Source: Desulfatiglandales bacterium
Lineage (GTDB): Bacteria > Desulfobacterota > DSM-4660 > Desulfatiglandales > Desulfatiglandaceae
Direction: 5' to 3'
Length of the DNA: 64,000 nt
Assembly: GCA_963666345.1 (NCBI GenBank)
Contig: OY762721.1
Location: 1,696,001-1,760,000, forward strand
The number at the start of each line of letters is the position of its first letter. Positions within the stretch are counted from its first letter, which is position 1. Under the pieces are notes generated by a model that ran no database searches, was not told where the DNA came from, and saw only the letters and a list, made by a program, of their open reading frames with translations. The position numbers and the translations under genes were made by a program. Below, piece after piece: positions 11,917 to 58,939 of this stretch.

Positions 11917-11960
11917 GCCCCCCCTCTCCTTCCGGCTCCACGAGTTTCTTATGTCACAGG

Positions 11961-13820: not shown

Positions 13821-14098
13821 TATTCCCCCTTTATCCTCTCCTTGGCCTGTTCGATCAAATCCATAAGTGAGTGCACCTTTGTCTTGGAAGGCCTTGTAAA
13901 GGCCTTTTCCCACTGCTCCCGGTCCAGCATGTCACTCAGATAGTCCTCTACCTGAAAGTGGGTATGCCAGCAGTCAAGGGTCTTGAAACAGGGCAGTCCG
14001 CTGTTTTCCCTCAAGCAGTAGGAAAACTGGATCTGATGGCCCAGTCTCGGGCACCTGATCTTATAATCATCATCCGGGGGTGTAAGCTTTTTTTCCAT
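13820..14098 (-). CDS. Small Cys-rich hypothetical protein
   Basis: 92 aa with CPRLGH..YC..PC..CW; ribosome-binding site present; the stop overlaps the iorA start (TAATG). Confidence 0.75.
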   Translation of the reverse strand: MEKKLTPPDDDYKIRCPRLGHQIQFSYCLRENSGLPCFKTLDCWHTHFQVEDYLSDMLDREQWEKAFTRPSKTKVHSLMDLIEQAKERIKGE

Positions 14099-14162
14099 GG
14101 CTCCCTATTTCAACCCATAAGGCCGTATCGGCCTCATGGGTTTTCATGAATGGTGATGGTTT

Positions 14163-15539
14163 TCATCCCGTGTACTGTCTGGGTTTGGGAAGGGGTGCAA
14201 TCTCGCTGAGGGCCCTCTGGATCTCTTCCTCCGCCAGGGCGTGATCAGCCAGTTTGCCTGTAAGATATGCCTCGTAGGCAGCCATATCAACAAGGCCGTG
14301 ACCGCTCCAGTTAAAGAGTATGACCTTTTCCTTTCCCTCCTCCTTTGCCTTCAGCGCCTCACGGATCGTAACGGCAACGGCGTGATTTGTCTCAGGCGCG
14401 CTTATAAAGCCCTCGGTCCTGGCAAAGGCGATACCGGCTTCGAAGGTCTCAAGCTGCGGCACTGCCACCGGTCGAATAAGGTTATCCAGTATGAGCTGGC
14501 TGATAAGCGGGGCCATTCCATGATACCTCAGTCCGCCTGCATGTATCGGTTCGGGGACAAAACCGTGTCCCAGGGTATGCATGGGAAGGAGCGGGGTCAT
14601 CTGAACCGTATCCCCGAAATCGTATGCAAAGGGCCCCCTTGTCATGGTAGGGCATGACTCCGGCTCAACACCGATTATATCTATATCCTTGCCGTGGATC
14701 TTATCTCTTACAAATGGAAAGCAGTTTCCGGCGAAATTGCTTCCGCCTCCTGCGCAGCCTATGACGACATCAGGATAATCACCTGTAAGGGCCATCTGTT
14801 TCTGTGTTTCAAGACCGTTTATCGTCTGGTGAAGCATGACATGGTTGAGGACGCTTCCAAGCGAATACTTACTGTTTTCATCCATGACAGCTGCCTCAAC
14901 CGCCTCGCTTATGGCCATTCCGAGGCTGCCTGGTGAGTCGGGGTTCTGCTCCAGGATCGATCGCCCCGCCTTAGTCTCGGTGCTGGGGCTCGCCGTGCAG
15001 CTTGCCCCCCATGTCTCCATCATCATGCGGCGGTAGGGTTTTTGCTGATAGCTGATCTTGACCATGAAGACCTTGCACTCAAGGCCGAACATTGCGCAGC
15101 ACATGGAAAGGGCGCTTCCCCACTGGCCGGCCCCTGTCTCGGTCGTGATCCTCTTTGTCCCGGCGACCTTGTTGTAATAGGCCTGAGCAATGGCCGTATT
15201 GGGCTTGTGGCTTCCGGCAGGGCTCACCCCCTCGTTCTTGAAATAGATCCTTGCGGGGGTATCAAGATATTTCTCCAATTCATAGGCCCTGTAGAGGGGT
15301 GTAGGTCTCCAGATGGCATATTTTTCAAGTACCTCCTCCGGGATATCTATCCATCTTTCCTGGCTGACCTCCTGTTCGATCAGGTTCATCGGAAAGATGG
15401 GCGCCAAATCATCAGGACCGACCGGCTCTCCAGTACCGGGATGAAGCGGCGGCTCCATCGGTGTGGGCATATCAGCCTGGATGTTATACCACTGGCGCGG
15501 CAATTCCGACTCGGGTAAAACGATCTTCTTGGCCTTCAT
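14163..15539 (-). CDS. trpB2: TrpB2-type PLP enzyme (stand-alone tryptophan synthase beta chain 2)
   Basis: WYNIQAD N-terminus, GSHKPNTA (PLP Lys), [26 protein letters not shown] and SGHG; strong AGGAGG ribosome-binding site. Confidence 0.92.
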
Positions 15540-15832
15540 GACTCCTCCTTTCGTCCACTTAAGTTCCCGTTTCGGCACGCAGCATCCTTGCTGCGAACCA
15601 GCCTATGACCTTAAATTTTCCAGACTTGCGAAGTGCTTGACTTGCCACTGACACTTCGATAGAGCCTGGCGGCCTAAAACAAGAAAAACCCCGAGTCAGG
15701 CTGATATCATCGCGCAGGCGAACAAGAGAACGATGGAGAGTTCAAAACAGCTGTAGTAAAGGCTTCAGGAATCACTCAAACGATATGCCACCGAAAACGA
15801 AGCAAAAAAGGAACCCAAAAGAATTGAAACAA

Positions 15833-27037: not shown

Positions 27038-28770
27038 CTACTCCTCAGAGCGAAGCGCCTCTGCAAGCGCTATCTCGAGATCACACTGCAGGCACCTTCC
27101 CGCCTCCGCCCTTGCCTGTTTATCACCATAACAGAGATCGACCTCGGCAAAGCCACTTCTCTCTGAAACCGGAAGCGAAGGCACACGCTCCCGCCTCATA
27201 TCGGCGAAACCTTCCACCCTTTTCCCTGTGTATGAAAGAGCCTCATCCGCATTTTTCTCTTTGGATTCCATTTCACCATCACCCCCGAGATACCTGTCAA
27301 CGGCCGAGGCGGCCCTTTTCCCCGATGCCACGGCTTGAACCACGGTCCCTGGTCCTGAGGCGGCGTCACCTCCCGCAAATACTCCCGGAATCCCTGTTTC
27401 CGACGTTTCCTCATTCACACCGATGAGATCCCCCTTGATATCAATGCCTACCCCCTCAAGAAAGGAAAGTTCACTTGTCTGGCCTATCGCCAGGATTACC
27501 TGATCGGTTTCGACCCTCTTTTTTGTATCGTCAAAGGCGGGGCAGAAATTTCCTTTTCATCAAAGACGGATGAACAGCGGACAAGTTCCACACCTGTTAT
27601 CTGTCCTCCGGCCGACATGATTTCACTCGGGCCCCATGACGGCAGAAGGCCTACCCCCTCTTCAAGCGCCATCTCAATCTCCCGGGGGTTTGCAGGCATC
27701 TCTTCCCTGCTCTCCAGGCATGCCATTACGACCTCTTTGGCACCCAGCCTGAGGCAGGTCATTGCTACGTCAACAGCCACATTGCCTCCTCCAACGACCA
27801 GAACCCTCTCTTTCAGTCCCAGGGATTCAGCTTCGCTCGCGGCGATAAGAAAATCCATACCCCAATGTACACCCTTAAGATCCGATCCCTTAAGAGGGAT
27901 CTTCCTGCTCGACCATAGCCCTGTTGCGATAAACACCGCGTCAAAACCCCTTTTCAGTTCCCGGATCCCGAAATCCACCCCCAGTCTCCTGCCCGCATTC
28001 AATTCGATACCCATATCAAGGAGCTGAGCTATCTCTGTTTCCAGGATATCCTCTGGAAGCCTGTAAAAGGGGATACCGTATCTCATCATGCCGCCCGGTT
28101 TCGGCTTTGCCTCGAATATCACTACCCTGTGGCCCTTTTTTCTCAGGTAAAAGGCCGCAGTCAGTCCTGCCGGCCCCGCACCTATAACGGCGACCTTTTT
28201 ACCGGTGTCTTTTCCGGCACCCGGCATATCGCGCAAATCTCCCGCATTGTCGGCCGCGAACCTCTTTAGCGCGCATATTGATACCGGTTCATTGACCTCG
28301 CCTCTTCTGCACATATCCTCACATGGATGAGTACATACCCTGCCGAGTATGCCGGGAAAAGGAACGCTTTCAAGTATAAGCCTGTACGCCTCATCATTTC
28401 TTCCCGCCGCAATATGCCTCAGGTATCCCGGCACATCCACACCCGCCGGACATGCCTCGATACAGGGAGGCGATTTGGGCCTGAACCCTTCCGGGGACAG
28501 TGCCCTCAGGGGTCTTATGACCTCCAGTATGGATACCCCGTTCGGGCAGACTCCTTCACATCTTCCGCAGGCAGTACAATTCCAGGGCTGGGGAGTGTCT
28601 GAAATCTCCTCTGCCAGTCCCAGTTCCACGTACCTCAAAAGCCTCCTGACATTGAACCCGTCGACACCTGTTATGGGGCAGGCGGAGCTGCACAGGCCGC
28701 ACTGCTCACAAGTACTGAACATATGTGCCTGTGAAAAAAGGCTTTCAGCCGGTCCGGTATTCATTTTCAT
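27038..28770 (-). pseudogene. HdrC-like 4Fe-4S / GltD-like FAD-NAD(P) oxidoreductase fusion, split by a single frameshift (real or a sequencing error)
   Basis: CEQCGLCSSACP and CTACGRCEGVCP, PCIEACP, GRVCTHPCEDMC, GAGPAG and GGGNVA. After SSVFDEK (about 27553) homology continues in another frame (NFCPAFDD...VILAIGQ...FAGGDA...RCLQC) to 27038. Confidence 0.8.
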
Positions 28771-28823
28771 CTCTATCGAACTCCTCTTAAGGGAATCTCT
28801 TAAAATTACTGGCACCTCGAATC

Positions 28824-30941
28824 TTAAAGCTTCAATTCCTCGACCATCCGGCGCATGGTATTGGCAAACTTGGGTCCGTCAGCGGCGGAGCACCATACAT
28901 TCCAGAGCCTCTCCGGGTCGTACCCCTTTTTGGCCAGCTTTCTCTTTGCCCTGTCGACCCTCTTTTCAGCGGCATAGTTGCCCGATATATAGTGGCACGT
29001 GGGAAACTCGCATCCCGCAACCAAAACCCCTGCCGCACCCAGATCAAAGGCCCTTTCGATCATTTTTATTGAAATGCGGGCGGAACACATCACCCTTATC
29101 AAACGGGCGTTGGGGGGGTACTGGAGCCTGCTAACCCCTGCCATGTCCACACCGCCGAGGGCACACCAGTGACATACGAATCCTACAATCTTCTTTTCAG
29201 GATTCTCTTCAAGTGCCGCTTCAACCTGAGCCAGTATCTGTTCATCCGAATAGTGAATAATGGTAATGCATTCCTTCGGACAATCAGCGGCGCACAGACC
29301 GCATCCCTTACAGAGCGCCTTTATGACAACAGGCATTTTATCTTCATTCAACTTTATCGCATTGTAGGGGCATCTCTTGTAACATAGGCCGCATGCATTA
29401 CAGTCCGTAAGATCGATATCGGCCACGATCCCCTCCGCCTCGATAAAACCGTTGTTCATCGGTATGGAGAGCCTCATTGCGGCTCCCATACCCTCCTCGC
29501 AACTGTCCTTTATCCCCTTTGGATTCTTGGCACACCCGCACAGGGCGATGCCGTCGAACGGAAAATCAAGAGGCCCCAGCTTGACATGCCTTTCCTGAAA
29601 GAATCCGTCCGAATTTGAGGATACCTTAAGGTGCCCTTTTATCTGCTCCACCGTGTCGTCACCCCTGAAACCGGTGGTGAGAACAACAAGGTCGGCGGGC
29701 AATCGGAACTGCCGCCCCAGAAGCATGTCGAACACGTTCACGGACAGGTCGCCGTCACTGCCGCTCACTTCGGGATAATCGCCGTCCGGGAACCTCAGAA
29801 ATTTGACGCCCGCCTCTTTGGCCGCGTCAAGCTGGAAATGCTCCTCCTTGACCATGCTCAAATCCCTGTAAAGGATGAAGACATTCACCTTGCTGTTAAG
29901 TCCCTTTATTGCCATGGCGTTTTTTACCGAAACCGGGCATCCTATGTTGCAGCAACCTCTGGAACCATTCTTTGAATTAACGCAGTTGATCACCACCACG
30001 TTTGTTATTTCCGAATCAACCCCGGAAATATTAAGGGAGTATTCACCTGCCTCATGATCAACTTCCCCTGCATCGGCCCGCCACTTCCTGATAATTTCTT
30101 CGAGCTGTAACTGGGTCACCACCCTGCTGTCTTTTCCGTACAGGAATTCCTCGGGGGGGTCGATCTCCTGCATTCCGGTCGCCACCACAACGGTTGAGAC
30201 TTCTACCTGCCGGGGCTCCCCGCCCACCTTCAGGCCCACCTTATAGTTACCAATATAACCTTCAACCGAATCGATCTCCGTGTCGGTATAGACGACGATA
30301 TGAGGGTGAGAGGTAACCTGCTCCACTTTTTTGGCCAGCAGCAGCGAGGAATCCATGCTTTCCCTGCCGTGAGAAACGGAACAGACCCTGTTAAGGAGCC
30401 CTCCCAGTTCATTTTTCTTTTCAACAATAATGCTTTTGAATCCCTGATCGGCCAGATTAACGGCCGCGGTCATTCCTGACATGCCCCCCCCGATTATCAG
30501 GCATTCTCTGCCTACCGGCAGTCTTATCTCCTCTCCTTCTTCAAGAAGGACGGCCTTTGCCACACCCATCTTGACCAGATCCTTTGCCTTTTCGGTAGCG
30601 GCATCCGGTTGTTTCATATGAACCCATGAGACCTGCTCCCTTATACTTACAAACTCAAGAAGGTAGGGGTTGAGGCCCGCCTCCTTTACCGTGGCCTTAA
30701 AAAGAGGTTCATGTGTCCTCGGGGTACAGGATGCTATTACAACCCTGTTAATATCGTGCTCCTTGATCGAATCCCTCATATCGGAAAGCGCGTCCACGGA
30801 ACAGGACCATTTCCCCTCATCCGCGAAAGCAACCATATCAAGGCCCTTTGCGTACTCGACTACATCGGGAACATTTACGACTCCCGCTATATTGGAGCCG
30901 CAGTCACAGACAAAAACTCCGACCCTTATTTCATCATTCAT
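28824..30941 (-). CDS. hdrA: HdrA-family flavoprotein fused to an MvhD/FlpD [2Fe-2S] domain
   Basis: VGVFVCDCGSNI, SCTPRTHE, IREQVSWVH, GGGMSG, a ferredoxin pair, and C-terminal CHWC, RVMCSAR and GCEFPTCHY. Confidence 0.88.
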   Translation of the reverse strand: MNDEIRVGVFVCDCGSNIAGVVNVPDVVEYAKGLDMVAFADEGKWSCSVDALSDMRDSIKEHDINRVVIASCTPRTHEPLFKATVKEAGLNPYLLEFVSIREQVSWVHMKQPDAATEKAKDLVKMGVAKAVLLEEGEEIRLPVGRECLIIGGGMSGMTAAVNLADQGFKSIIVEKKNELGGLLNRVCSVSHGRESMDSSLLLAKKVEQVTSHPHIVVYTDTEIDSVEGYIGNYKVGLKVGGEPRQVEVSTVVVATGMQEIDPPEEFLYGKDSRVVTQLQLEEIIRKWRADAGEVDHEAGEYSLNISGVDSEITNVVVINCVNSKNGSRGCCNIGCPVSVKNAMAIKGLNSKVNVFILYRDLSMVKEEHFQLDAAKEAGVKFLRFPDGDYPEVSGSDGDLSVNVFDMLLGRQFRLPADLVVLTTGFRGDDTVEQIKGHLKVSSNSDGFFQERHVKLGPLDFPFDGIALCGCAKNPKGIKDSCEEGMGAAMRLSIPMNNGFIEAEGIVADIDLTDCNACGLCYKRCPYNAIKLNEDKMPVVIKALCKGCGLCAADCPKECITIIHYSDEQILAQVEAALEENPEKKIVGFVCHWCALGGVDMAGVSRLQYPPNARLIRVMCSARISIKMIERAFDLGAAGVLVAGCEFPTCHYISGNYAAEKRVDRAKRKLAKKGYDPERLWNVWCSAADGPKFANTMRRMVEELKL

Positions 30942-32302
30942 TTCACGTCCCTCACCTGGTTTCTTACAACCGCCTTCATACCGGCTGCGCAGGCCTGAAC
31001 CACGGACTCCGAGATATCGATAGGCCCGGTTGCTCCCCCGCACAGATAGATTCCTTCCACCGCCGTCTCAAGAGGAGACACCAGAGGGTCCTTTTCCTTG
31101 AAAAACCCCAGCTCGTCCAGTTCGATCCTCAACACCTTGGCAAGTCTTTCGTTCCGGTCATTCGGCACAAGACCCATGGAAAGCACAAGAAGATCAAATT
31201 CTTCCTCAACGATTTCTCCCGTCTCCAGGCTTTCATACCTGAGAATCAGGTTTTTTGTTTCCTTTTCTTCAATAACATCAAAAGGCCTTGCCCTTACATA
31301 TCTGACCCCGTTGTCGAGCGCTTTTTCATAAAAAGCCCAGAAGCCTTTTCCGTAGGCCTTGAGATCATTATAAAAAATTGTGGCCCCTACCGACGAATCA
31401 TGCTCCTTGGTGATAATCGTCTGCTTTGCGGCAATCATGCAGCATACCTTCGAGCAGTAGGGCAGCCCTGTTTCAAGCCCCCTTCCGGCGCATTGAATCC
31501 ATGCTATCCGGTGGGCATGACTTTTATCGGAGGGCCTTATTATCCGGCCTGCCGTGGGACCCCCGGCATTCATCAACCTTTCGAACTGCAGATTGGTTAT
31601 GACATTTTCATGTTCACCATACCCGTATAGCCCCGGAGCGGGCTGAGCCGAAGCGATACCTGAGGCGACCACTATGCTTTGTACTTCCAGGTTAAGATTT
31701 CTGTTCGACTGCCAGAGTCGCACCGCATCCTTTCCCTCCTCCTGACAGGCCTTGACACAAAGGGCGATCGGGCACTCCCGGCACTGACTGCAATCCACAA
31801 CGCAGCCTCCCACGCAGGCTCCCTGCTCTCTCATATTACCGTAGCGACAATCGGGGTCTATTACCGCGACATTGGGTACGGCCTGAGGAAAAGGCATATA
31901 GATGAGTTTTCTCATACCTCCTATCTTGCCGTCCATTTCGTCCGGTATGCTGACCGGGCAGGCCTCCATGCAGGCGCCGCATCCAGTACACTTTTCCTCG
32001 TCTATGAATTTGGCCTTCTGAACCAGTTTTACCTTGAAACCTCCGTCCGACTTTTTGACCTTTCTGATCTCGGTATTTGTCAGGATCTCTATGTTGGGTT
32101 CATTATCCACTTCGTACATCTGAGGTGCTTCGATACAAATCGAACAGTCGTTGGTGGGAAAAGTCTTATCGAGCCTTGCCATCATTCCACCGATACTGGC
32201 CGTATCATCCATCAGATAGACATGTGTACCGTATCTGGCGGCATTCAGCGCGCAGTTTATGCCGGCTATTCCGCCTCCTATAATCAATATCGATGCGTCC
32301 AT
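30938..32302 (-). CDS. hdrA: HdrA-family flavoprotein (lacks the N-terminal Fe-S domain; Cys-expanded inserted ferredoxin)
   Basis: GGGIAG, LDKTFPTNDCSIC, CTGCGACMEACP, FPQAVP, QFERLMNAGGPT, YCSKVCC and GPIDISES. Confidence 0.9.
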   Translation of the reverse strand: MDASILIIGGGIAGINCALNAARYGTHVYLMDDTASIGGMMARLDKTFPTNDCSICIEAPQMYEVDNEPNIEILTNTEIRKVKKSDGGFKVKLVQKAKFIDEEKCTGCGACMEACPVSIPDEMDGKIGGMRKLIYMPFPQAVPNVAVIDPDCRYGNMREQGACVGGCVVDCSQCRECPIALCVKACQEEGKDAVRLWQSNRNLNLEVQSIVVASGIASAQPAPGLYGYGEHENVITNLQFERLMNAGGPTAGRIIRPSDKSHAHRIAWIQCAGRGLETGLPYCSKVCCMIAAKQTIITKEHDSSVGATIFYNDLKAYGKGFWAFYEKALDNGVRYVRARPFDVIEEKETKNLILRYESLETGEIVEEEFDLLVLSMGLVPNDRNERLAKVLRIELDELGFFKEKDPLVSPLETAVEGIYLCGGATGPIDISESVVQACAAGMKAVVRNQVRDVK

Positions 32303-32529
32303 AGATCCGCCTCTTGTCTTTTTCTGAACTTTTACACCTGTAATTTCAGCATCCTGTCAGCCCAATCGGACCTCTCCGGCAAAAACGCCCGACAGGAAAA
32401 AGGTTACCGCTGCAAATGGGATGCGATTATCATCAGGCTGGAATCGGAATAGTCCGGACGATATTGACACGAACCTTCCCGACCATCCTTACAGGGATGC
32501 TTTCTCGTGGATTCGAGGAACAGTGCCCC

Positions 32530-32739
32530 TCAAATCTCGGTTATAATTATTGCCCCCGATTTACACACTGCCACGCAGGTCCTGCATCCGAGGCAATTCT
32601 GTGGTCTTACTGCCTGAGCCTTGTGAGACATGTCAAAGACATCTACAGGACAAAACTTAAAGCATTCCTCACAGCCGTCACACTTTTCAGCATCAATGTG
32701 CACCAGATAAACTTCGAAAGACTTGTATTTTTTACCCAT
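32530..32739 (-). CDS. 2x[4Fe-4S] ferredoxin
   Basis: CDGCEECFKFCP and CLGCRTCVAVC. Confidence 0.85.
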   Translation of the reverse strand: MGKKYKSFEVYLVHIDAEKCDGCEECFKFCPVDVFDMSHKAQAVRPQNCLGCRTCVAVCKSGAIIITEI

Positions 32740-32832
32740 AAGTTGTTTCAAAACCGGTTGAAATCGATATTTGCATCAAAACCCATACACTGCCCATCCC
32801 AAAATAAGGTCATACGCTCCATTGAAGTTTAA

Positions 32833-33097
32833 GGACCTTCTCCCGATTAATTGGTCAATTAGCATATCTTTTTTACACAGTGCGGCATATCAGGATTCGA
32901 GGGACCAAGGGGCCAAGGGTTCGAGTGAAAAACAGAGAGAAATCTAATGGAATCCTGATTTTTAGTCGATGAAATATCCACACACAAGCAGAAGAAAATT
33001 CGATGCAGCAGAAATAACATATTTAGACACCAACCACTTGAACCCCGGCCCCTGGAACCCGGGAACCCGCTGTGAAGCAGTGGGACTGAGCGAAGCG
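32833..33097. repeat. MITE-family copy with inverted octamer arms (no right terminal repeat found)
   Basis: Left end GGACCTTCTCCCGATTAATTGG resembles 59776; AAGGG(T/G)CC-type arm at 32892-32927 and complementary GAACCC arm at 33035-33068; the tail GAAGCAGTGGGACTGAGCGAAGCG matches 59839-59862 in inverted orientation. Confidence 0.7.
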
Positions 33098-33532
33098 CTA
33101 TTTTTTCAGTTCCTCCCACTTGTAGTCGATAAGCTCGGTTAAGACTCCGTTCAGTTTTTTTGGGTGAACAAAGGCAAATTCACAATCTCGAAAGGGTCTT
33201 GCGATTTCTCCACGCTTATCAGGGATAAAGGGGTATCCCTTGCCCTTCATCTCATCCACGGCTTCACGGGTATTGTCGACATTAAAGCTGATCAGCATGA
33301 CCCCTTCACCGTTTTTTTCTATGAACTTGGCCACATCACCTTCAGGGGATGTGGATTCCATCAATTCGAAGCCTACCTCCCCGACCCAGTAACGGGCGAC
33401 GTTTATCTTTTCAGGTTCATCCACATATGCGTCGTCCGGGCCTGATTTACCCAAAAGCGGCTCCCAGGTCTTTTTCGCCTCTTCCAGATCTTTTACCGCG
33501 ATGCAGATATGGTCTATCTTGTTGGCCTTCAT
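33098..33532 (-). CDS. VOC family protein, methylmalonyl-CoA epimerase-like
   Basis: KIDHICIAV, FELME, VAKFIEKNGEG and FVHPKKLNGVLTEL. Confidence 0.85.
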   Translation of the reverse strand: MKANKIDHICIAVKDLEEAKKTWEPLLGKSGPDDAYVDEPEKINVARYWVGEVGFELMESTSPEGDVAKFIEKNGEGVMLISFNVDNTREAVDEMKGKGYPFIPDKRGEIARPFRDCEFAFVHPKKLNGVLTELIDYKWEELKK

Positions 33533-33614
33533 AACAGACTCCTTGAGATGAGCTTTCACCCCATACCGGGCTGCCGGGACAGTCCGGCATGAGGAAAGCT
33601 CCCGTTTTGATTGC

Positions 33615-33821
33615 TTAGAATGTTACCTTTTCCAGCGGAATGGTGATCGCCTGATCAGGGCAGATGCTTCCGCATTCATTGCAGTCCTCACAGATGAATT
33701 CGGTAACCACGACCCTGCCGTCCTGCACCCTAACCGCCGAATCAGGGCATACCTCTACACACAGGGGTTGGACATTGCCCCCACACATGGTGCATTTTTC
33801 CATATCTATCTGAGCAGCCAT
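33615..33821 (-). CDS. 2x[4Fe-4S] ferredoxin
   Basis: CTMC-x6-CVEVCP and CEDCNECGSICP; GGAG ribosome-binding site. Confidence 0.85.
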   Translation of the reverse strand: MAAQIDMEKCTMCGGNVQPLCVEVCPDSAVRVQDGRVVVTEFICEDCNECGSICPDQAITIPLEKVTF

Positions 33822-33836
33822 TTTAAACTCCCTATA

Positions 33837-34364
33837 TTATTTTTTTTTGTAAAGCCTTATGAGATACTCTCCTTCGCCCCTGGGAATAGCCTTGAGCATT
33901 TCAAGTCCCAGATCGATATTGAAAAACATGTTCACGTCTTCAAGTATGGCCTTGAACAGGCTCTCTCTTGTAACCGCCACCTCTTCCATGGGGACTCCGA
34001 ATTCCTTGGCAGCGGTAGGCCATGGGCATCGGGTGCACCGGATAAAGACCTCACCCGGGCTTTCTCCCTTTTCTGCAAACGCAAGCCCTCCCTCGGTCAC
34101 CCACACCCCCGCCATCGCCCTTCCGAGGTTGAGAATAAAGGCATCTTCCCCTTTCAGCCAGTTGAGTCTGGGCAGGAAGCTCTTGCCTATATCCTTTCCC
34201 ATATGCTCGGCCGCCTTCACCGCGATACCGGCAGGATCGGCATCAGGGCCGGCCAGTTCAAGCGCCACTTCACGCCACCGGTAATAGGTTTTGCAGATTT
34301 CAGTCTGGGCGCCATGCATGTTTTTCCATAATTTACTTATTTCCTTTTCTGCGTTAACTGGCAT
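33837..34364 (-). CDS. Hypothetical protein (V4R/ATC-hydrolase-like fold suspected)
   Basis: 175 aa, AGGAG ribosome-binding site, short spacing between the OYE and ferredoxin genes; CTRCPW motif. Confidence 0.75.
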   Translation of the reverse strand: MPVNAEKEISKLWKNMHGAQTEICKTYYRWREVALELAGPDADPAGIAVKAAEHMGKDIGKSFLPRLNWLKGEDAFILNLGRAMAGVWVTEGGLAFAEKGESPGEVFIRCTRCPWPTAAKEFGVPMEEVAVTRESLFKAILEDVNMFFNIDLGLEMLKAIPRGEGEYLIRLYKKK

Positions 34365-34377: not shown

Positions 34378-36360
34378 TTATATCCTTAGACCGATCCGGT
34401 AACCGTCATGGACGGCGCTTGAAAGATTCCTCGGGACAAGTGCGTCACCAACGGCAAAGAGCTCCATGCCCTCCGCCTGAACCGCCTTTTTCAATCCTTC
34501 GTTGGCCTCCCTCTCCGAGATCACTATGGTGTCGAATTTTACCGGGAAGCGGTAGCCGTCATAGGTCTTGACCGTAATCTCGCCATCTGTGATCTCTTCG
34601 ATATCACAGTCATTATAGGCCATGACCCCGTTTTGTCTGAGATAGATCATATAACGCCATTTGAAGGACGGATTGATATCAAAGCCCGCGCTCTTTTCTC
34701 TTCCCACAATGGTGACCTTCTTCCCCTCTTTTGCGAGCTTGAGCGCAACTCCTATCCCGGGTTTTCTGTTTCCCCATACCACGACCCGCTCTCCGACTTC
34801 CGCCTTGCCGCTCATCACATCCAGGACATTGACGATATTTTCCCCCTCTCCCGGAAGTTTCGGGTATACGGGGCCTGTGGCAAGCACCACGCTGTCGGGC
34901 ATCTCATCCTGTATCAGCTCTTCGGTCACCTCGGTTGCCAGGTGGAATACGACACCGTATTTTTCACACATCGTCTTCTGATACTTGACGCATGTCATCA
35001 GTTCTTCGTCGCCGTACGGGGCCTGTGATGCCTCAAGAAGGGTCCCGCCTATTTCATCTCTCTTGTCGTAGACATGGACCTCGTGTCCCCTCTGTGCGGC
35101 GACATAGGCGCATTCCAGACCGGCGGGTCCGGCTCCCACAATCATAATCTCTTTTTTGTCATCTTCTTCCACCTCTTTCGGGTAGAAGCCGTCATCATGC
35201 TCATGGGCGCAAAGAGGGTTTATGTAACAGGTCATCGGCGCATCACGGAACAATCTGGCAAGGCAAAGATTACAGGCAACGCAGTGCCTGATCTCTTCTT
35301 CCCTGCCCTCCAGAACCTTTTTGGGCATGTAAGGATCGGCTATCATCGGACGGCACATCTCCCAGAAATCCAGTTCACCGTCTCCTATCGCCTTATCAGG
35401 CCGATCAGGCGTAAAGAGACGATATGCCATCTGGACCGGCACCTTCACATGCTCCTTTGCCCTCTTTGCAAGATGGAGCCAGTTTCCCTGGGGGATATCC
35501 CTGCTTATTACCGGGTATATGGATTCCTGCCAGCCGAGGGTACAGCTTATGTAATCGGCGCCGGCCTCCTCCGCGAGCTGGTAGGTGATCATCGACTCTT
35601 CAGGCGTATTACCCCTTACGTCATCCAGCAGTTCCTCTGAACAAAGTCTTATTCCTACAGGGATATCCGGGCCGCAGGCCTCTTTTACCCCCTGAATGAT
35701 CTCTACCATGGCCTGGCACCTGCCTCTTATATCCCCGCCGTATTCATCGGTCCGCCTGTTCGTATAGCTTGAGAGAAAATTGGAGATAAGATATCCCACG
35801 ATGCCCGATATCTCCATCACGTCGAAGCCGGCCTCCACGCCTCTTCTGGCCGATTCGACATGCTGTCTGATCATCTCCTTCACCTCTGCGTTGGTCATCT
35901 CATCCATCGGCTTGAATATTCTCAGCCTTTGAGGCACTGCGGAAGGACCGTGCCCGCTGTCCACTTCGACCGCGCCGACTCTTCCGCAGTCCATAAGCTG
36001 AAATCCCGCTATGGCCCGTTCTCCATGTATGGCATCGGCCATCTTCTTGAGCCCCGGGATGAACTTGTCGTCCCAGCAGCCCGCCTGTCCCACATAACCC
36101 TGTCCCTTGCGCGGCTCATCCATATAGACTCCCTGCATGAAACAGAGTCCTCCCACGACCCCCTCGGCCCTAGACCTTATATAGGCCACATCGGCATCGG
36201 TAATAAAACCGTGATGATCGTTGAGGTTGTCTTCGGTAGCCGCATACTTGATCCTGTTAGGGACCATCAGGTTCCCCAACTCGATCGGCTTGAAAATATT
36301 AGGATACCTTTTTGCTCCCGGATACGAGGAGTAATCCCATTCAAACAATACTTTGGCCAT
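34378..36360 (-). CDS. OYE-family FMN/[4Fe-4S]/FAD oxidoreductase (dienoyl-/aryl-CoA reductase-like)
   Basis: TIM barrel (PNRI, GYLISNF, NRRTDEYGG), CVACNLC...CYINP cluster motif and GAGPAG FAD domain; 660 aa. Confidence 0.88.
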   Translation of the reverse strand: MAKVLFEWDYSSYPGAKRYPNIFKPIELGNLMVPNRIKYAATEDNLNDHHGFITDADVAYIRSRAEGVVGGLCFMQGVYMDEPRKGQGYVGQAGCWDDKFIPGLKKMADAIHGERAIAGFQLMDCGRVGAVEVDSGHGPSAVPQRLRIFKPMDEMTNAEVKEMIRQHVESARRGVEAGFDVMEISGIVGYLISNFLSSYTNRRTDEYGGDIRGRCQAMVEIIQGVKEACGPDIPVGIRLCSEELLDDVRGNTPEESMITYQLAEEAGADYISCTLGWQESIYPVISRDIPQGNWLHLAKRAKEHVKVPVQMAYRLFTPDRPDKAIGDGELDFWEMCRPMIADPYMPKKVLEGREEEIRHCVACNLCLARLFRDAPMTCYINPLCAHEHDDGFYPKEVEEDDKKEIMIVGAGPAGLECAYVAAQRGHEVHVYDKRDEIGGTLLEASQAPYGDEELMTCVKYQKTMCEKYGVVFHLATEVTEELIQDEMPDSVVLATGPVYPKLPGEGENIVNVLDVMSGKAEVGERVVVWGNRKPGIGVALKLAKEGKKVTIVGREKSAGFDINPSFKWRYMIYLRQNGVMAYNDCDIEEITDGEITVKTYDGYRFPVKFDTIVISEREANEGLKKAVQAEGMELFAVGDALVPRNLSSAVHDGYRIGLRI

Positions 36361-36432: not shown

Positions 36433-37629
36433 TTACGGTAATCCGAATATGCTTACTGCGCTTACATGTATGCCCACGTTTCCTCCGACATTGTGAATAA
36501 GTCCCAGTTTCGGGTTTTTGAGCTGTCTTTCGGGGTTATCCACCCGTCCCTGAAGTTGTTTGTATACCTCGTAGGTCATCCTCAGACCGCTTGCCGAAAG
36601 AGGGTGCCCGAAACACTTAAGACCCCCGTCCGTATTTATAGGCTGCGCGCCCGATAAGAGATATCTGCCCGCTTCAATGTCCTCAGGCGCCTTGCCCCTC
36701 TCGCTGAAACCCAGATCCTCGATGGTTATCAGCTCGGTGGTGCTGAAGCAGTCGTGGAGTTCGGCCATGCTGATCTCTTCCCTGGGATTTTTGATGCCCG
36801 CCTCTTTGTAGGCGGCATTTGCCGCTGCAACGTTCTCCGGGAAACTCAAAAAATCAAATTCCTGCTGCATTGTCGACTGGCCGGCCCCTGTGGCAACCCC
36901 CTGCCCTTTTACCAGTATGTAGTCGTCCCTGAGTGTCTTTGCTATCTCAGGTGTAGTTACAATGGCCGCTGCCCCTCCGTCACTCATGCCGCACGCGTCA
37001 TATAGGGTGTAGGGCCATGATATGATTCTGGCCTTAAGCACGTCTTCCACGGTTATCTTTCGGTGCAGATGCGCCTTGGGGGTCAGAAGCCCGTTGTCGT
37101 GGTTCTTGACGTTTATGATTGCAAGCATCTTTTTGAATCCTTCGAAATCCCAGTTATAATCATCCTTGTAATGATAAAAATATCTGGTCCCGTACTGCCC
37201 GAACTGGCTCGCGGGCGGGATGTCCCATTCGGTCATACCCCTGTCAAGAGGCTCCTGGATGAACAGACCGAACCCGCCGTGATGATCCTTTGTCTTTTCA
37301 ACTCCGCATGCCAGTACGATATCAAAGACACCTGAAGCGACTCCGTAGCAGGCGTTTCTTAGGACATCCTGACCGCCCGCGCAAAAATTCTCCACCCTTG
37401 ACACGGGGATATATTGCGTCTTGAGGGCCCTGGCAAGATGCGCGCCGGTAAAACCGGACTCCCTGCTCGCATACCATGCCGCCTGAATGTCCTTAGGTTC
37501 GATTCCAGCATCCTCTATGGCCTCGTAGCATGAATCCACTACCAGGTCTTCTATCCCTTTATCCCACAGTTCACCGAACTTCGTGCAACCCATGCCGACG
37601 ATAGCTACCTTGTCTCTGATGCTTCCCAT
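36433..37629 (-). CDS. SCP2/BbsB-type thiolase (IaaA-like)
   Basis: VENFCAGG, ELHDCF and GGLKCFGHP motifs. Confidence 0.88.
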   Translation of the reverse strand: MGSIRDKVAIVGMGCTKFGELWDKGIEDLVVDSCYEAIEDAGIEPKDIQAAWYASRESGFTGAHLARALKTQYIPVSRVENFCAGGQDVLRNACYGVASGVFDIVLACGVEKTKDHHGGFGLFIQEPLDRGMTEWDIPPASQFGQYGTRYFYHYKDDYNWDFEGFKKMLAIINVKNHDNGLLTPKAHLHRKITVEDVLKARIISWPYTLYDACGMSDGGAAAIVTTPEIAKTLRDDYILVKGQGVATGAGQSTMQQEFDFLSFPENVAAANAAYKEAGIKNPREEISMAELHDCFSTTELITIEDLGFSERGKAPEDIEAGRYLLSGAQPINTDGGLKCFGHPLSASGLRMTYEVYKQLQGRVDNPERQLKNPKLGLIHNVGGNVGIHVSAVSIFGLP

Positions 37630-37671
37630 TTTGAGCTCCCGGCCCTGAAGGGCCCATGTTTTATGTTTTCA

Positions 37672-39087
37672 TCATCTCACAGGTTTCGATTCCCAGAAAT
37701 ATGTGCAGACCCCTTCACGGTCCGTTATCTCATCCCAGGGGGAGTATCTCCTGAAGGTCATCTCCACCGGCATGCCGACAGTTATGTTTTCACTGTCCGC
37801 CTCCGTCATATAACTCTGGATCCTTCCTCCCCCCTCGAAATCGACCTCGGTTGTAACTACAGGTATCTCAGCTCTGGGAGTAATATAATCCAGGTTATAG
37901 GTGAAGATCCTGCCCTTCCTGCCTATGAAGCTGTATTGCTCCATGCAATCTCTTTCACGGCATTTGGTGCAGACACGCTGCGGGGGATACTGAACATACC
38001 CGCATGACAGGCACCTTGAACCATGAAGGCTGACGGTTCGATCGTATTCCCTTTTCGCCGCAACCGCCGAGTATGCCGCGTGAGGCCCGGCCGCCTTTTC
38101 AATGGGGATTATGCCTCTCCACCTGAGATACCTCATGTAATCGTCGACCACCCTCCTGGAACCGCTGTGCCCTCCGATCCCCATGCTGTTTTCTCTTGCC
38201 TTTTCAATATTGCCGTTAACCTTGAAAGCGAATGCATCCGCGCCGTTTCCGTAACCCGCACAGAGTATAAGTTCCCCTTTTGATGATTGCTCAAGGGCCG
38301 CGACCAGCCCCATGAGCACGGAAGCGGCCCCTGTATCGCCTATAGAGTCTATAAGGGGGTCCTGGAGCTGTTTTTCGACGTCAAAGCCGAGGGATTTTGA
38401 GAGCTTGACACCTCGTCTGCCGTCCGGGCTGTAAAGACAGACACGGTCAAAATCATCCGGCTTGAATCCGTATCTCTCCATCAATCCCCTTATCGCCTTG
38501 CCCATGGACGGCAGATAGCCCTGTTCAACGGCGAAACGGCTCTCCCAGCTTCTCACGTATCGATCATGGTGGCTTCTCCATACATCTATTATCTCGTTGT
38601 ATACATGGAAACTTCCTTCAAGGGTCACGGCCGCATCCTTGTCTCCCAATAATATCGCGGCAGCGCCGTCTCCCAGGTTTTTTTCCTCCATTGATCCCGG
38701 GTGACCCAGCCTGCAGTCCGAGGCCACCACCATGGCGGATCTCGTTGAGCCTGCCATGACGCTGTCAAAACCCGCCTTGAGGGCCGCGGTACCGGCGCGC
38801 AGGCAGTTGCCGAATTCGGCGGTGTAGGTCTGCTCCCTGAAGTCGGAGGCCATGGCAATGGTGGTAGCCGATGAATGTTCCCTGTACGGGGCTGAAGTCG
38901 TGCCGAAATAGATCGCTTCAACACTATTTCGGTCCCTTCCCTTGAGACAGTCACTGACCGCCTCCACCGCCATCGTTACGCTGTCTTCGTCAAAGCTGCA
39001 GATCGCTTTTTCTCCCCTGCCGCCTATGACTTTCCTGTCCAGTCTGAAAAGCGGGACATATGCGCCGAATGATGTAATTCCGACCAT
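37672..39087 (-). CDS. HMG-CoA-synthase-like domain fused to a DUF35 Zn-ribbon/OB fold (thiolase partner)
   Basis: DEDSVTMA, GDGAAA, IGDTGAA and YGNGAD, then CLSC..PPQRVCTKC and GMPVEMTFRR. Confidence 0.85.
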   Translation of the reverse strand: MVGITSFGAYVPLFRLDRKVIGGRGEKAICSFDEDSVTMAVEAVSDCLKGRDRNSVEAIYFGTTSAPYREHSSATTIAMASDFREQTYTAEFGNCLRAGTAALKAGFDSVMAGSTRSAMVVASDCRLGHPGSMEEKNLGDGAAAILLGDKDAAVTLEGSFHVYNEIIDVWRSHHDRYVRSWESRFAVEQGYLPSMGKAIRGLMERYGFKPDDFDRVCLYSPDGRRGVKLSKSLGFDVEKQLQDPLIDSIGDTGAASVLMGLVAALEQSSKGELILCAGYGNGADAFAFKVNGNIEKARENSMGIGGHSGSRRVVDDYMRYLRWRGIIPIEKAAGPHAAYSAVAAKREYDRTVSLHGSRCLSCGYVQYPPQRVCTKCRERDCMEQYSFIGRKGRIFTYNLDYITPRAEIPVVTTEVDFEGGGRIQSYMTEADSENITVGMPVEMTFRRYSPWDEITDREGVCTYFWESKPVR

Positions 39088-39096
39088 GTGGTACTC

Positions 39097-41118
39097 CTAT
39101 TTTGTGTATTTCGGTTTCCGCTTCTCCAGAAAGGCCGTGATTCCCTCTCTGGCTGCATCGGTGCAGGCAATCTCCCCAAAGCCCCGGTATCCTATTTCAA
39201 GCGCATCCCCGAAGTTTTCCGCGGCGGCGCCCTCTTTTATGGTCTTGACCGCTATTTGAACCGCTTCATTGCTGAGTGAAAGCCTTCCCGCCTTCGGTTC
39301 CGCCGGGACTGCGATTTCCGGTATATCCACCTTCCCTTCCCGGATCACTTCGACCTTTCCCTCCAGTTCCTTTACCTCTTCGACGGCGGCCATGATATTG
39401 CTGCGGTAATCCTCCGTAATTGTCCTAACCATCCCGATTTGCCTTGCATCCTCGACTTTGATCGATTTTCCAAGGGTTATCATCTCATGAAACAGCCCGG
39501 CGCCTTCCGGCCACTTTCTATAGGGTACGATACAGCCTCCGATGCCCGGAATTATCCCCAGGGTGATTTCAGGGAACTGGAATCTTGCGTTTTTCGTCGC
39601 CGTCATGCCGTGGCACCTTATCGCGACCTCAAGCCCGCCTCCCAGGGCAAGCCCGTTTATGGCGGCGACAACCGGTTTTTTCATGCGGTCCATATGGAGC
39701 TGTACCTTGGCGCACGCCCTGGAGTATTCGATTGACGCGTCGGCGTCTCCCAGCATTTCGGGAAATTTTCCTATATCGGCCCCCGCGGAAAAGGCGCTGT
39801 TTCCGTAGCCTGTAATTACGAATCCCTTTACCTTGGGATCTTCTTCGTAAAGTTTCAATGCGGAGAGGATCTCCTCTGTTATCTCGTCGTTCAAGGCGTT
39901 CATGGCCTGCGGCCTTCTTATGGTAATGACCTTTACCCCTTCGATCTCATCGACAAGAATATGCCGAAAAAAATCCTGATAAGCATCAACGGGTTGTTTT
40001 GCCTCAGGAAAACCCGCTCTTTGACTTTTAAACAGGCCCATTACCTTTTTCACTTCTCCTTCACCCAGATCTTTCATGATGTCAAAGGGGCCCTTTTTAA
40101 ACCCGAGCGCTATCTGGCATCCCATGTTGAGATCCGCATTTGTGCCTATTCCCCTGTCAATGATATCAAAGGATTGTGAAAATAGTATTCCCAGCATTCT
40201 GTTTCTTACAAAGGATGCCGTCTCATCCGGGACCTCCACCTTTGCGCCGGGACGATGGGTCAGCCATTTTTTAACGGACCCAAGGATGCCCGCGGGTTTG
40301 TAATGTGCACTCTCCTCCATCTGAAGTGAATTCGTCTCTATGATTATGGGGTTACCGTTGGCCATGTTCAGAACGAAGAAGGGGCCGGCAAAAACGAACT
40401 CCTCAGCGACCTTGTCTATCTGAGAGGCGGTGGCCCTTTCAAGAAGGTAAGCGGCCTCGTTACACCAGTTATCGAATACGCGGTCCAGCATGAAACATAT
40501 TGCGTTGTCCGTAATAAGAGGGACCTTCCCCGTCTGTGCGAAAAACCAGAAAAGGTAATCCATAACCTCTTTGCTTACCCTCTCCCAGCTTATTACCTCA
40601 ACCGGAAGACTTCGCCATGCTGGAGCGAAAAAATGCGTCACGGTTGTTCTTTCCTGCCTTTTCATATTGCAGAAGATCCTGTCGGCGGGTATTGAACTCG
40701 TGTTTGACGTGATGATAGTCTTCTCACTTACTATTCCTTCGATAGTCTCAAATATTTTCCGCTTCAGGGCGATGTTTTCCGTAGCAGCCTCTATGACAAG
40801 CTCGCAGTCCTTCAATCGCTCGTAATCTGTCGTGTACACTATGTTTTCCAGAACCGCGTCGGCCTTTTCCTGCTTCATCTTTCCCTTGTCAAGCGCCTTT
40901 GCGACATACCCCGAAAACCTTTCCCGAGCCTTTTTAAGGGGCTCCTCGACTATGTCGACGACATACAGGGTAGTTGCCGGAAGGGCGCTTTTGAGATAAT
41001 AACCGATATCCGGTCCGATCGTACCGGCTCCCACCACCGCCACTTCCCCGGGCAGGGCAAAAGGTTCGACCAGAAGGGGGTTATGATATGAATGGTACAG
41101 GCTCTTTGCTTGATCCAT
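39097..41118 (-). CDS. 3-hydroxyacyl-CoA dehydrogenase / enoyl-CoA hydratase fusion (IaaP-like)
   Basis: GAGTIG, EAATE, SNTSS and HFF in the N-terminal half; FSAGADI, GGGLE and PEITLGIIPG in the C-terminal half. Confidence 0.9.
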   Translation of the reverse strand: MDQAKSLYHSYHNPLLVEPFALPGEVAVVGAGTIGPDIGYYLKSALPATTLYVVDIVEEPLKKARERFSGYVAKALDKGKMKQEKADAVLENIVYTTDYERLKDCELVIEAATENIALKRKIFETIEGIVSEKTIITSNTSSIPADRIFCNMKRQERTTVTHFFAPAWRSLPVEVISWERVSKEVMDYLFWFFAQTGKVPLITDNAICFMLDRVFDNWCNEAAYLLERATASQIDKVAEEFVFAGPFFVLNMANGNPIIIETNSLQMEESAHYKPAGILGSVKKWLTHRPGAKVEVPDETASFVRNRMLGILFSQSFDIIDRGIGTNADLNMGCQIALGFKKGPFDIMKDLGEGEVKKVMGLFKSQRAGFPEAKQPVDAYQDFFRHILVDEIEGVKVITIRRPQAMNALNDEITEEILSALKLYEEDPKVKGFVITGYGNSAFSAGADIGKFPEMLGDADASIEYSRACAKVQLHMDRMKKPVVAAINGLALGGGLEVAIRCHGMTATKNARFQFPEITLGIIPGIGGCIVPYRKWPEGAGLFHEMITLGKSIKVEDARQIGMVRTITEDYRSNIMAAVEEVKELEGKVEVIREGKVDIPEIAVPAEPKAGRLSLSNEAVQIAVKTIKEGAAAENFGDALEIGYRGFGEIACTDAAREGITAFLEKRKPKYTK

Positions 41119-58857: not shown

Positions 58858-58939
58858 TCTCACATCTCCACTATTATGAGGGCTCCATTTGCATGCCTGT
58901 TATCGCCGCACCAGCCGGTCTTCTCATTTTTCCCGGTTT

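Follow-up and report, generated by a model that had tools for sequence, protein, structure and literature searches.

What does an Hdr-type module that lacks HdrB and carries a nicotinamide site instead do beside an OYE-family reductase? The question is raised by a cluster in the window, by which we mean the whole 64,000-nucleotide stretch of contig OY762721.1 (Desulfatiglandales bacterium) that was analysed; all of the genes described here lie on its minus strand. We tentatively propose, at somewhat less than even confidence and by analogy with known systems, that the ferredoxin Fd2, a short HdrA, an HdrA-MvhD fusion and an HdrC~NfnB fusion would form one soluble Hdr-type complex that serves the OYE by ferredoxin-driven bifurcation.

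The four-gene module recognized by the initial annotation was confirmed gene by gene. Fd2 (32530..32739) is a 2x[4Fe-4S] ferredoxin of 69 aa from its ATG, matching Pfam Fer4 families; its longest ORF starts at 32751. The short HdrA, HdrAs (30938..32302, 454 aa), covers residues 146–563 of PDB 5odc_A (E 7e-110) with a domain of the FAD/thioredoxin-reductase type and an inserted ferredoxin domain that is enlarged and contains 12 invariant Cys, and both the N-terminal domain and the C-terminal ferredoxin domain are absent. Its C53 and C56, invariant in 12 of 12 orthologues, are the equivalents of Cys194 and Cys197. The HdrA-MvhD fusion (28824..30941, 705 aa; PF02662, 146 bits), whose ATGA overlap with the HdrAs gene is read directly from the sequence, matches both 5odc_A (E 1.5e-118) and 5odc_D (E 1e-35). 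It comprises an N-terminal cluster domain (C12, C14, C47, C72), a FAD domain, a C-terminal 2x[4Fe-4S] domain and MvhD, and is without the inserted ferredoxin domain and without Cys194/197; its cysteines, five of them in the MvhD domain, are invariant in 12 of 12 orthologues. Both HdrA paralogues score under the cut-offs of the NCBIfam HdrA models. The last gene, at 27038..28770, encodes the HdrC~NfnB/GltD-like fusion (577 aa read intact; Fer4_8/Fer4_17, Fer4_20 and Pyr_redox_2), made up of an HdrC-like 2x[4Fe-4S] part, an NfnB-type 2x[4Fe-4S] part, FAD and an NADH-type Rossmann site. It scores 62 bits against TIGR03290 (HdrC; cut-off 160). Its Pfam, NCBIfam and PDB matches, with eight invariant Cys and a GGGNVAxD motif, give it the two Fer4_20 clusters, FAD and nicotinamide site of an NfnB/GltD-like protein.

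A −1 frameshift in an A-run near 27553 breaks the fusion gene as it stands in the window, leaving a 439-aa ORF and the rest in another frame. An intact 577-aa relative, 94–95% identical, exists. The contigs of all four sequencing runs compared have one extra base behind 27553; one of these runs may have given rise to the record, two belong to another study and one is of a related strain. The break therefore stems from a misassembly, and the gene itself is unbroken and encodes 577 aa.

Judged from their alignments to 5odc_A, the two HdrA paralogues are complementary halves: HdrAs holds Cys197 and the inserted ferredoxin domain, and HdrA-MvhD holds the N- and C-terminal domains together with MvhD. 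Excerpts of PMC9012536 give a heterodimer rule for tandem HdrA genes: one paralogue bears the N-terminal domain, the other Cys197. Each of the present paralogues has the one feature that the other misses, and this is invariant in 12 of 12 orthologues. The initial annotation had named structural modelling as a check, and a heterodimer of HdrAs and HdrA-MvhD was indeed predicted, with a score of 0.89 against 0.00 for the best of three controls; 116 of 157 solved complexes and two of 215 mismatched pairs attain the mark that it passed. At least 89% of contacts agree between runs, partner pLDDT is at least 85, and the predicted interface has HdrAs residues 52 and 56–57 facing HdrA-MvhD residues 47–49 and 72. 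This pass may partly reflect likeness to solved HdrA homodimers.

A Y-R-R motif binds the 2'-phosphate in NADPH-dependent NfnB-like proteins. It is found in five solved NADPH-binding NfnB-like chains, and C-L-E is invariant in its place in 24 of 24 members of the fusion family. The site therefore looks NADH-type, not NADPH-type. The Fer4_20 two-cluster domain, FAD and nicotinamide site are shared with NfnB, Bfu-type NfnABC and StnABC (PDB 4ylf, 5jca, 9bov, 9n5u, 8oh5), and the RCLQC segment is C-terminal, as it is in 9bov and 8oh5. Besides the motif, the fusion differs from these solved proteins in its added HdrC-like N-terminal domain.

The likely partner of the module is an NCR-like OYE-family FMN/FAD/[4Fe-4S] reductase (34378..36360). 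Its best solved match is 2-naphthoyl-CoA reductase (NCR, PDB 6qkg), aligned over the full length with 459 bits, compared with 256 bits for DCR (1ps9), and its third domain is without the GxGxxG found in DCR. Like aryl-CoA reductases of type III it has the barrel, the [4Fe-4S] linker and the FAD domain and lacks a motif for NAD(P)H. It departs from them at NCR W459, a tryptophan said to block the NADPH site, which aligns with E or L in the OYE; moreover, no electron module of their own is described for the published enzymes.

Next in the conserved cluster order of OYE, 175-aa protein, Fd1, VOC protein and Hdr module comes a 175-aa protein (33837..34364) that weakly resembles ATC hydrolase/DUF6125 (PF14196, E 0.0015, below the cut-off) and has an Atlas cluster score of 0.98, possibly from its own cluster. 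Its gene follows that of the OYE in all 11 related genome loci. Fd1 (33615..33821), a second 2x[4Fe-4S] ferredoxin of 68 aa assigned by Pfam Fer4 families, has orthologues of 72–88% identity in the same 11 of 11 loci, and Fd2 was found by blastp to precede the short HdrA in 10 of the 11, L116 being the one where it was not found. The VOC/glyoxalase-fold protein (33098..33559), methylmalonyl-CoA-epimerase-like by PF13669 and TIGR03081 (81.5 bits, cut-off 115), is conserved within the cluster at the related genome loci. Genes for a thiolase, an HMG-CoA-synthase-like/DUF35 fusion and a FadB-like 3-hydroxyacyl-CoA dehydrogenase/enoyl-CoA hydratase fusion (36433..41118; Pfam, NCBIfam) are often, not always, part of the cluster; the FadB-like gene is present at L003, L008, L009, G013 and G324 and at 13 of 64 metagenome loci. 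Gaps of 358 bp and 227 bp lie within the cluster; transcription may run across both, and a scan of the sequence for promoter and terminator consensus sites counted no more of them than in shuffled sequence.

A neighbourhood search, another check named by the initial annotation, established that the module recurs in a conserved OYE cluster that is widespread in sediment Desulfobacterota and is found also in Gaiellales. We found no description of this OYE-Hdr cluster in the literature. Of the six fusion loci in genome contigs that are closest, five have the whole gene set (the sixth lies on a contig of only 3.3 kb), and two Gaiellales MAGs among those five hold the set in a different gene order. 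OYE orthologues (at least 70% identity) turned up in six of 400 genomes sampled from the phylum; the module lies within 12 kb in all six, and short-HdrA orthologues are confined to the same six. The 64 metagenome loci include the OYE in 28 instances, ETF genes in four and Mo-hydroxylase genes in two, which gives little support to the earlier suggestion that the module drains ETF and the Mo-hydroxylase.

The proposed link to the OYE is thus backed by clustering in two phyla and by reciprocal co-occurrence, and is weakened by three metagenome loci (L189, L199 and L203), out of the 11 that have 7 kb or more on each side, at which no OYE is seen. At L189 a fusion-type module stands beside mutase, ACAD, ETF and FadB genes, and there and on six shorter contigs the module is divergent to FadB and no OYE lies within reach. 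Such loci, the EtfAB and acyl-CoA dehydrogenase genes of L189 and L210, and the several HdrL-like genes of the genome would fit a module that works independently of the OYE, either in general energy metabolism (HdrL/DsrC-type) or at an ACAD/ETF step of the neighbouring pathway. We think this very improbable in view of the six-of-six reciprocal co-occurrence, the set kept despite shuffled gene order in Gaiellales and the metagenome count that favours the OYE over ETF. At one further locus, L172, the HdrC-type gene is missing after HdrA-MvhD.

The absence of HdrB was borne out as well. No CCG domain and no hydrogenase, formate dehydrogenase or cytochrome-b family was detected among the 53 window ORFs scanned with Pfam; the 4.16-Mb genome has 29 CCG matches, of which the nearest is ~67 kb away from the module, and all six genomic AFOR_N matches (BamB tungsten AOR-type subunit) fall outside the window. 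In a genome of the same family (G260) and on contig L200, a separate HdrC and a two-CCG HdrB stand exactly at the position of the fusion within an OYE-linked cluster, and G260 has no fusion orthologue elsewhere (best match 49% identical). HdrD-like proteins occupy this position in the more distant cassettes L199, L203 and L208. The notion that a pyridine-nucleotide module has replaced the disulfide reductase is well supported by the HdrC and HdrB found at the same spot in G260 and L200.

This exchange indicates that Hdr modules swap their terminal branch and is a clue to which branch is downhill. NAD+ and a disulfide each rank as a classical downhill acceptor. The exchange of HdrC plus HdrB for the NAD module speaks for the NAD site as an acceptor and not as the donor assumed by the initial annotation, the direction of flow being assigned by analogy. 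With NADH as donor, the complex would bifurcate electrons to ferredoxin (uphill) and to an OYE-bound enoyl- or dienoyl-CoA (downhill) as in Bcd-EtfAB or caffeyl-CoA reductase, or, as first proposed, would merely make reduced ferredoxin for the OYE. We regard this as unlikely, even though the NADH-type site of the fusion, the hydride-accepting NfnB-like flavins of solved Nfn enzymes, the want of an NAD(P)H motif in the OYE and the two ferredoxin genes of the cluster are all in keeping with it: the HdrC plus HdrB variants would need a dithiol to reduce ferredoxin, which is thermodynamically unfavourable, no downhill acceptor is encoded unless the OYE fills that role, and the OYE is far nearer to low-potential NCR than to DCR. 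The same variants would have to oxidise a dithiol if the complex ran by confurcation, with NADH and reduced ferredoxin feeding the HdrA flavin and MvhD passing electrons to the OYE, a reversal of Mvh-Hdr for a substrate couple near −400 mV. Confurcation would amount to the canonical wiring, as given in excerpts of PMC9012536, run backwards, and would suit a fused MvhD for which no hydrogenase partner is encoded in the window; it also assumes docking of the OYE on MvhD, and we consider it improbable.

Ferredoxin-driven bifurcation, the reading we prefer, is modelled by analogy on the wiring of HdrABC-Mvh and on class II benzoyl-CoA reductase. The core of the complex would be the heterodimer of the two complementary HdrA paralogues with two FAD, on which the HdrC-like domain would dock the NfnB-like FAD/NADH module at the place of HdrB in canonical complexes. 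Reduced ferredoxin would deliver electrons to an HdrA flavin, where they would bifurcate. On the downhill path the HdrC clusters and then the NfnB-like FAD would hand the electron on to NAD+, and on the uphill path the lower-potential electron would pass through the inserted ferredoxin domain to the dedicated ferredoxin Fd1 and on to the OYE. The complex would be dedicated to this NCR-like OYE of the same cluster, which is itself without a dinucleotide-binding motif for NAD(P)H and would carry out the hard reduction of a CoA ester.

Every cofactor site could equally serve simple transfer, and a plain non-bifurcating chain of Hdr-like parts might link NADH, the ferredoxins and the OYE; to our knowledge, bifurcation is not proven for QmoAB-like pairs of HdrA. 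That two HdrA flavin sites are conserved, that the MvhD domain is kept and that the three-pole architecture is the one of known bifurcating complexes makes such a chain, in our estimation, quite improbable. QmoABC of sulfate reducers likewise consists of two HdrA paralogues, the second MvhD-fused, after which comes a protein whose N-terminus is HdrC-like. The fusion scores 36.8 bits against NF038018 (qmoC; cut-off 300), and Pfam finds on this third protein Fer4_20 and Pyr_redox_2 instead of any cytochrome-b family. A soluble NfnB-like domain replaces the membrane haem-b part of QmoC, and the neighbour is an OYE and not AprAB.

The module resembles HdrABC-MvhAGD of methanogens (PDB 5odc and relatives) in the HdrA FAD/FeS fold, MvhD, the HdrC-type dicluster and the three-branch bifurcating architecture; it differs in having HdrA divided over two complementary paralogues and HdrC joined to an NfnB-like NADH/FAD domain, with HdrB/CCG and hydrogenase absent. 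In ANME, heterodimers of tandem HdrA and fusions of HdrA with NfnB follow the same complementarity rule but, in the excerpts of PMC9012536, are archaeal and sit with HdrBC/FdhAB without an OYE link. The logic of our proposal is shared by the class II benzoyl-CoA reductase BamB-I, in which, according to excerpts of PMC12016498, HdrA-like and MvhD-like parts, together with a module that reduces NAD, power a reduction at a potential lower than that of ferredoxin; there the catalytic subunit is of the tungsten AOR type and the NAD module NuoEFG-like, in contrast to the OYE and NfnB-like domain here.

If the mechanism holds, the class II idea (bifurcation) would be joined to a class III catalyst (OYE). 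It is conceivable, if on the whole doubtful, that this constitutes a fourth way to drive hard CoA-ester reductions, with a type III-like OYE energised by an Hdr-type bifurcation that takes its electrons from reduced ferredoxin and has NAD+ (or, in the HdrCB variants, a disulfide) for its downhill acceptor. The substrate would be a mono- or heterocyclic aryl-CoA, for example an intermediate of the neighbouring tryptophan/indoleacetate-like pathway, and the cluster would reveal the physiological electron supply long sought for NCR-like enzymes. A BamA/Oah gene is likewise present in the genome, as are AOR genes adjoining HdrA-like and CCG genes, so the cluster is not needed for benzoyl-CoA reduction. 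Excerpts of papers up to 2026 (PMC6502838, PMC13101529, PMC13365417) say that it is unknown what donates electrons to OYE-type aryl-CoA reductases in nature. With its dedicated ferredoxin pair and HdrB-less Hdr-type module with an NADH site, the cluster is a concrete candidate donor system and may be the natural electron supply of OYEs related to the naphthalene-ring reductase.

A single locus likewise brings together HdrA, MvhD and a GltD-like site for NADH in Desulfobacterium autotrophicum and Syntrophobacter fumaroxidans, where, by the excerpts of PMC2702500 and PMC5947623, HdrL is one polypeptide of ~1,400–1,500 aa and the function of HdrL-MvhD is unproven. The present module has these parts as three separate genes, with an extra HdrA paralogue and a link to an OYE, and contains no single polypeptide of HdrA plus GltD-like type. 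The HdrL-like ORFs of this genome, ~1,420 aa, lie outside the module and carry the GltD-like part between two HdrA parts, and MvhD is separate from HdrL in 14 of 80 loci.

The four-gene module lies on the minus strand, where the initial annotation had placed it. It begins with a 2x[4Fe-4S] ferredoxin, Fd2 (32739..32530), followed by a short HdrA paralogue of 454 aa, HdrAs (32302..30938), a 705-aa HdrA–MvhD fusion (30941..28824) that overlaps HdrAs by ATGA and, from position 28770, a gene encoding an HdrC-like dicluster domain and then an NfnB/GltD-like set (Fer4_20, FAD, nicotinamide site). In the window this last gene, HdrC~NfnB, is broken by a −1 frameshift at an A-run near 27553, and its last 149 residues are encoded in another frame, down to 27038. 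An intact 577-aa fusion protein, 94–95% identical, is present in the protein collection, and in the contigs of all four public runs placed on the window (one possibly the record's source, two of another study and one with a related strain) there is one extra base behind 27553. Because all four sets of contigs carry this base, the frameshift is an error of this assembly and the fusion gene is whole in the organism; the same observation rules out a pseudogene.

Invariant cysteines of the fusion protein fall into four groups of four, two groups being HdrC-like and two NfnB-like; the last two NfnB-like cysteines lie in a C-terminal RCLQC segment, as they also do in 9bov and 8oh5, chains of the Bfu and Stn types. 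At its nicotinamide site an invariant C-L-E stands in place of the Y-R-R found in five solved NADPH-dependent relatives, and from this replacement in a Rossmann site we infer that the site probably binds NADH rather than NADPH. The earlier statement that no HdrB is encoded nearby holds: we found no CCG domain (HdrB/HdrD type) among the 53 window ORFs put through a Pfam scan, and of the 29 CCG matches across the 4.16-Mb genome the nearest is separated from the module by about 67 kb. Genes of the AOR type (BamB-like) are likewise located elsewhere in the genome, outside the window. A Qmo assignment was rejected since the fit is limited to architecture (NF038018, 36.8 bits against a cut-off of 300). 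Other Hdr-related loci of the same genome, with AOR, HdrA-like and CCG genes or HdrL-like genes, lie on contig G000:C1 around 752000-757300, 1014800-1021300, 2618400-2621200 and 2820900-2823700. In a Bam-like arrangement, the AOR genes adjoin CCG proteins and HdrA-like ORFs that include in-frame TGA, the HdrL-like ORFs are about 1,420 aa long and also contain in-frame TGA, and a BamA/Oah gene is present at about 3367000.

When aligned to the solved HdrA 5odc_A, HdrAs and HdrA–MvhD prove complementary. HdrAs covers residues 146–563 and contains the FAD domain, the equivalents of Cys194 and Cys197 (C53 and C56) and an enlarged inserted ferredoxin domain, and it lacks the N-terminal cluster domain, the C-terminal two-cluster ferredoxin domain and MvhD. 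HdrA–MvhD covers the N-terminal, FAD and C-terminal parts: it has its own FAD domain, the N-terminal cluster domain (C12, C14, C47, C72), the C-terminal two-cluster ferredoxin domain and MvhD, with neither the Cys194/Cys197 equivalents nor the inserted ferredoxin domain. None of these cysteines varies in any of the 12 orthologues compared. Chadwick et al. (PMC9012536) describe this complementary pattern for tandem HdrA genes and interpret it as a heterodimer, the N-terminal cluster of either HdrA partner being completed by Cys197 from its counterpart. Complex prediction with HdrAs and residues 1–540 of HdrA–MvhD gave a score of 0.89, the best of three controls scoring 0.00, and passed a mark that is reached by 116 out of 157 complexes of solved structure and by 2 out of 215 mismatched pairs. 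At least 89% of contacts are common to the runs, partner pLDDT is at least 85, and the confident predicted interface includes HdrAs residues 52 and 56–57 opposite HdrA–MvhD residues 47–49 and 72. Since solved HdrA homodimers exist, this pass indicates likeness rather than independent proof of the predicted heterodimer. The inserted ferredoxin domain of HdrAs has 12 invariant cysteines where 8 would be expected for two clusters; a Cys-rich extra stretch within it (residues 152–186), absent from 5odc_A, may bind a third cluster.

Four further genes lie immediately upstream, also on the minus strand. The first (36360..34378) encodes an OYE-family FMN/FAD/[4Fe-4S] reductase whose best solved match is 2-naphthoyl-CoA reductase (NCR; 459 bits, full length); it scores 256 bits against DCR, the 2,4-dienoyl-CoA reductase of E. 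coli, and, as in NCR, the GxGxxG of DCR's NADPH domain is missing. An NCR tryptophan is reported to block the NADPH site (PMC6502838); that position is E or L in the alignment of the window OYE. The others encode a 175-aa protein weakly like ATC hydrolase/DUF6125 (34364..33837), a second small ferredoxin, Fd1 (33821..33615), which the initial annotation had overlooked, and a VOC/epimerase-like protein (33559..33098).

From a search of genome contigs with the fusion protein, the kind of neighbourhood search suggested in the initial annotation, 80 of at least 600 loci were kept. Of the six closest loci among those kept (51–59% identity in the best aligned segment), five, from three Desulfobacterales and two Gaiellales MAGs, contain the OYE, the 175-aa protein, Fd1, the VOC protein, Fd2, HdrAs, HdrA–MvhD and the fusion; the sixth contig is just 3.3 kb long. 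The gene order differs in the two Gaiellales MAGs, and three loci have a TetR gene at the head of the cluster and unrelated housekeeping genes at the flanks. More distantly related, 14 of the 80 loci encode giant HdrL-like proteins with a small MvhD-like ORF after them. The association is reciprocal. Within a 400-genome sample of the phylum, 40 genomes have an OYE homologue at E ≤1e-100 and only six of these have one of at least 70% identity; all six carry HdrAs and HdrA–MvhD on the same contig within 12 kb. No such module was found in the stretches fetched from the other 34 (OYE 33–50% identity), at least 8 of which have a small ferredoxin ORF adjoining the OYE. The reverse search of this sample with HdrAs (E ≤1e-140) returned the same six genomes only, and these span five families. 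In one genome, G013, a FixABCX-type ETF in place of the module was considered and ruled out, as the module lies 2–10 kb further on the same contig. A FixC/ETF-QO-like flavoprotein and a 92-aa ORF do occur there between an acyl-CoA dehydrogenase and EtfBA (L115:4544-6108), inside the same large cluster as the OYE and the Hdr module.

Searching metagenome contigs with HdrAs, we kept 80 of at least 589 loci, 64 of them with an orthologue of at least 55% identity. Of the 64, 28 show an OYE orthologue; the figure is 16 of 22 where at least 5.5 kb of upstream sequence is available and 8 of 11 where each side extends for at least 7 kb. In the three remaining loci of these 11 the OYE was not seen: L189 has a fusion-type module divergent to FadB, ETF, ACAD and mutase genes, and L199 and L203 are more divergent (61–63% identity), with HdrD-like proteins. 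The link between module and OYE is thus strong, yet not universal at metagenome-locus distance. That the two are functionally unconnected would suit these three loci and sits poorly with the reciprocal result in genomes; we regard it as very improbable. In a further metagenome locus (L208:7869-14452), a distant OYE (27% identity) is directly upstream of a divergent cassette of HdrAs, HdrA–MvhD and an HdrD-like protein, with an AMP-dependent ligase next in line. The fusion variant may be younger than the OYE's association with a split HdrA.

The gene that follows HdrA–MvhD differs among relatives. Genome G260 is of the same family as the window and shares 85% identity in the OYE; its HdrA–MvhD is followed by a 159-aa HdrC and a 291-aa protein with two CCG domains, and the best homologue of the fusion anywhere in that genome is just 49% identical. 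Metagenome contig L200 shows the same arrangement of HdrC plus HdrB (HdrCB) within a complete OYE cluster. Among 29 metagenome loci long enough to show the third gene, it is the fusion in 25 and CCG-type in three (HdrC plus HdrB in L200, HdrD-like in L203 and, as classed by Pfam scan, in L199), and L172 has neither. The swap seen in G260 and L200 is thus a counterpart in nature to the initial annotation's proposal that a pyridine-nucleotide module replaces the disulfide reductase.

Genes, domains, cofactor ligands, clustering and the swap are directly seen; how the complex works we infer throughout. In the canonical Hdr complex, as described in PMC9012536, electrons enter via MvhD and the C-terminal ferredoxin domain and are bifurcated at the FAD, the downhill exit running from HdrC to HdrB and the uphill exit reaching ferredoxin by way of the N-terminal cluster and the inserted ferredoxin domain. 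At the HdrC branch, close relatives would appear to use NAD+ and a disulfide interchangeably, and the most economical reading makes that branch the downhill acceptor in the fusion and HdrCB forms alike. This would leave a scheme like that of class II benzoyl-CoA reductase, as summarised in PMC12016498, and by this analogy we tentatively favour ferredoxin-driven bifurcation: reduced ferredoxin would donate electrons, NAD+ would accept them downhill, and the OYE's hard reduction would form the uphill branch, the two dedicated ferredoxins serving as entry and exit wires. An NADH-type site would also allow bifurcation driven by NADH, with ferredoxin and the OYE substrate as acceptors; this is conceivable, if rather unlikely. 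That NADH and reduced ferredoxin confurcate onto the OYE seems improbable, and a plain electron chain a little more so.

Each component belongs to a known kind: HdrA, MvhD, HdrC and NfnB-like domains, NCR-like OYEs, tandem HdrA heterodimers and HdrL. The literature search gave no published case of these components joined as a module dedicated to a CoA-ester reductase of the OYE type, and no paper linking such a reductase to an Hdr/NfnB module, its coverage leaving aside the HdrA-module review of Appel et al. 2021, which may bear on the point. Full-text literature searches likewise yielded no published description of the exchange between HdrC~NfnB and HdrCB. The window further contributes the proof that an apparent frameshift is an assembly error, the 6/6 co-occurrence in both directions, the HdrCB variant in a sister genome, the putative NADH-type site and the exceptions without a nearby OYE.

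Between the VOC gene and Fd2 there is a short dispersed repeat (33035-33098). An 81-base query around it has 43 matches in the genome, itself included, the depth of run contigs reaches 205–534 there in three runs, and it looks like a REP-type intergenic element. A promoter/terminator scan of 26.5–36.8 kb returned 9 and 10 sites, where shuffled sequence would be expected to give 8.6 and 9.7, and three metatranscriptome runs contain just 0.07–0.14 of the sampled words.

Further upstream of the OYE are genes for a thiolase, an HMG-CoA-synthase-like/DUF35 fusion and a dehydrogenase/hydratase fusion. Beyond these (41255-61285, minus strand) follow hydantoinase A/B, a three-subunit Mo-hydroxylase, a PaaK-like CoA ligase, a TRAP transporter, a B12-dependent mutase, an acyl-CoA dehydrogenase, ETF and a family III CoA transferase, a set which we take to resemble the anaerobic indoleacetate (iaa) pathway yielding 2-aminobenzoyl-CoA. 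EtfA (57658-58863, minus strand) has an N-terminal 2x[4Fe-4S] ferredoxin domain, a form known from some bifurcating ETF complexes. At 11344-15578 on the minus strand, an indolepyruvate/2-oxoacid:ferredoxin oxidoreductase-like pair and a PALP-family PLP enzyme hint at tryptophan-related catabolism and a source of reduced ferredoxin; in G260 both families also neighbour the OYE/Hdr cluster, as does the PALP enzyme in a second genome, G216.
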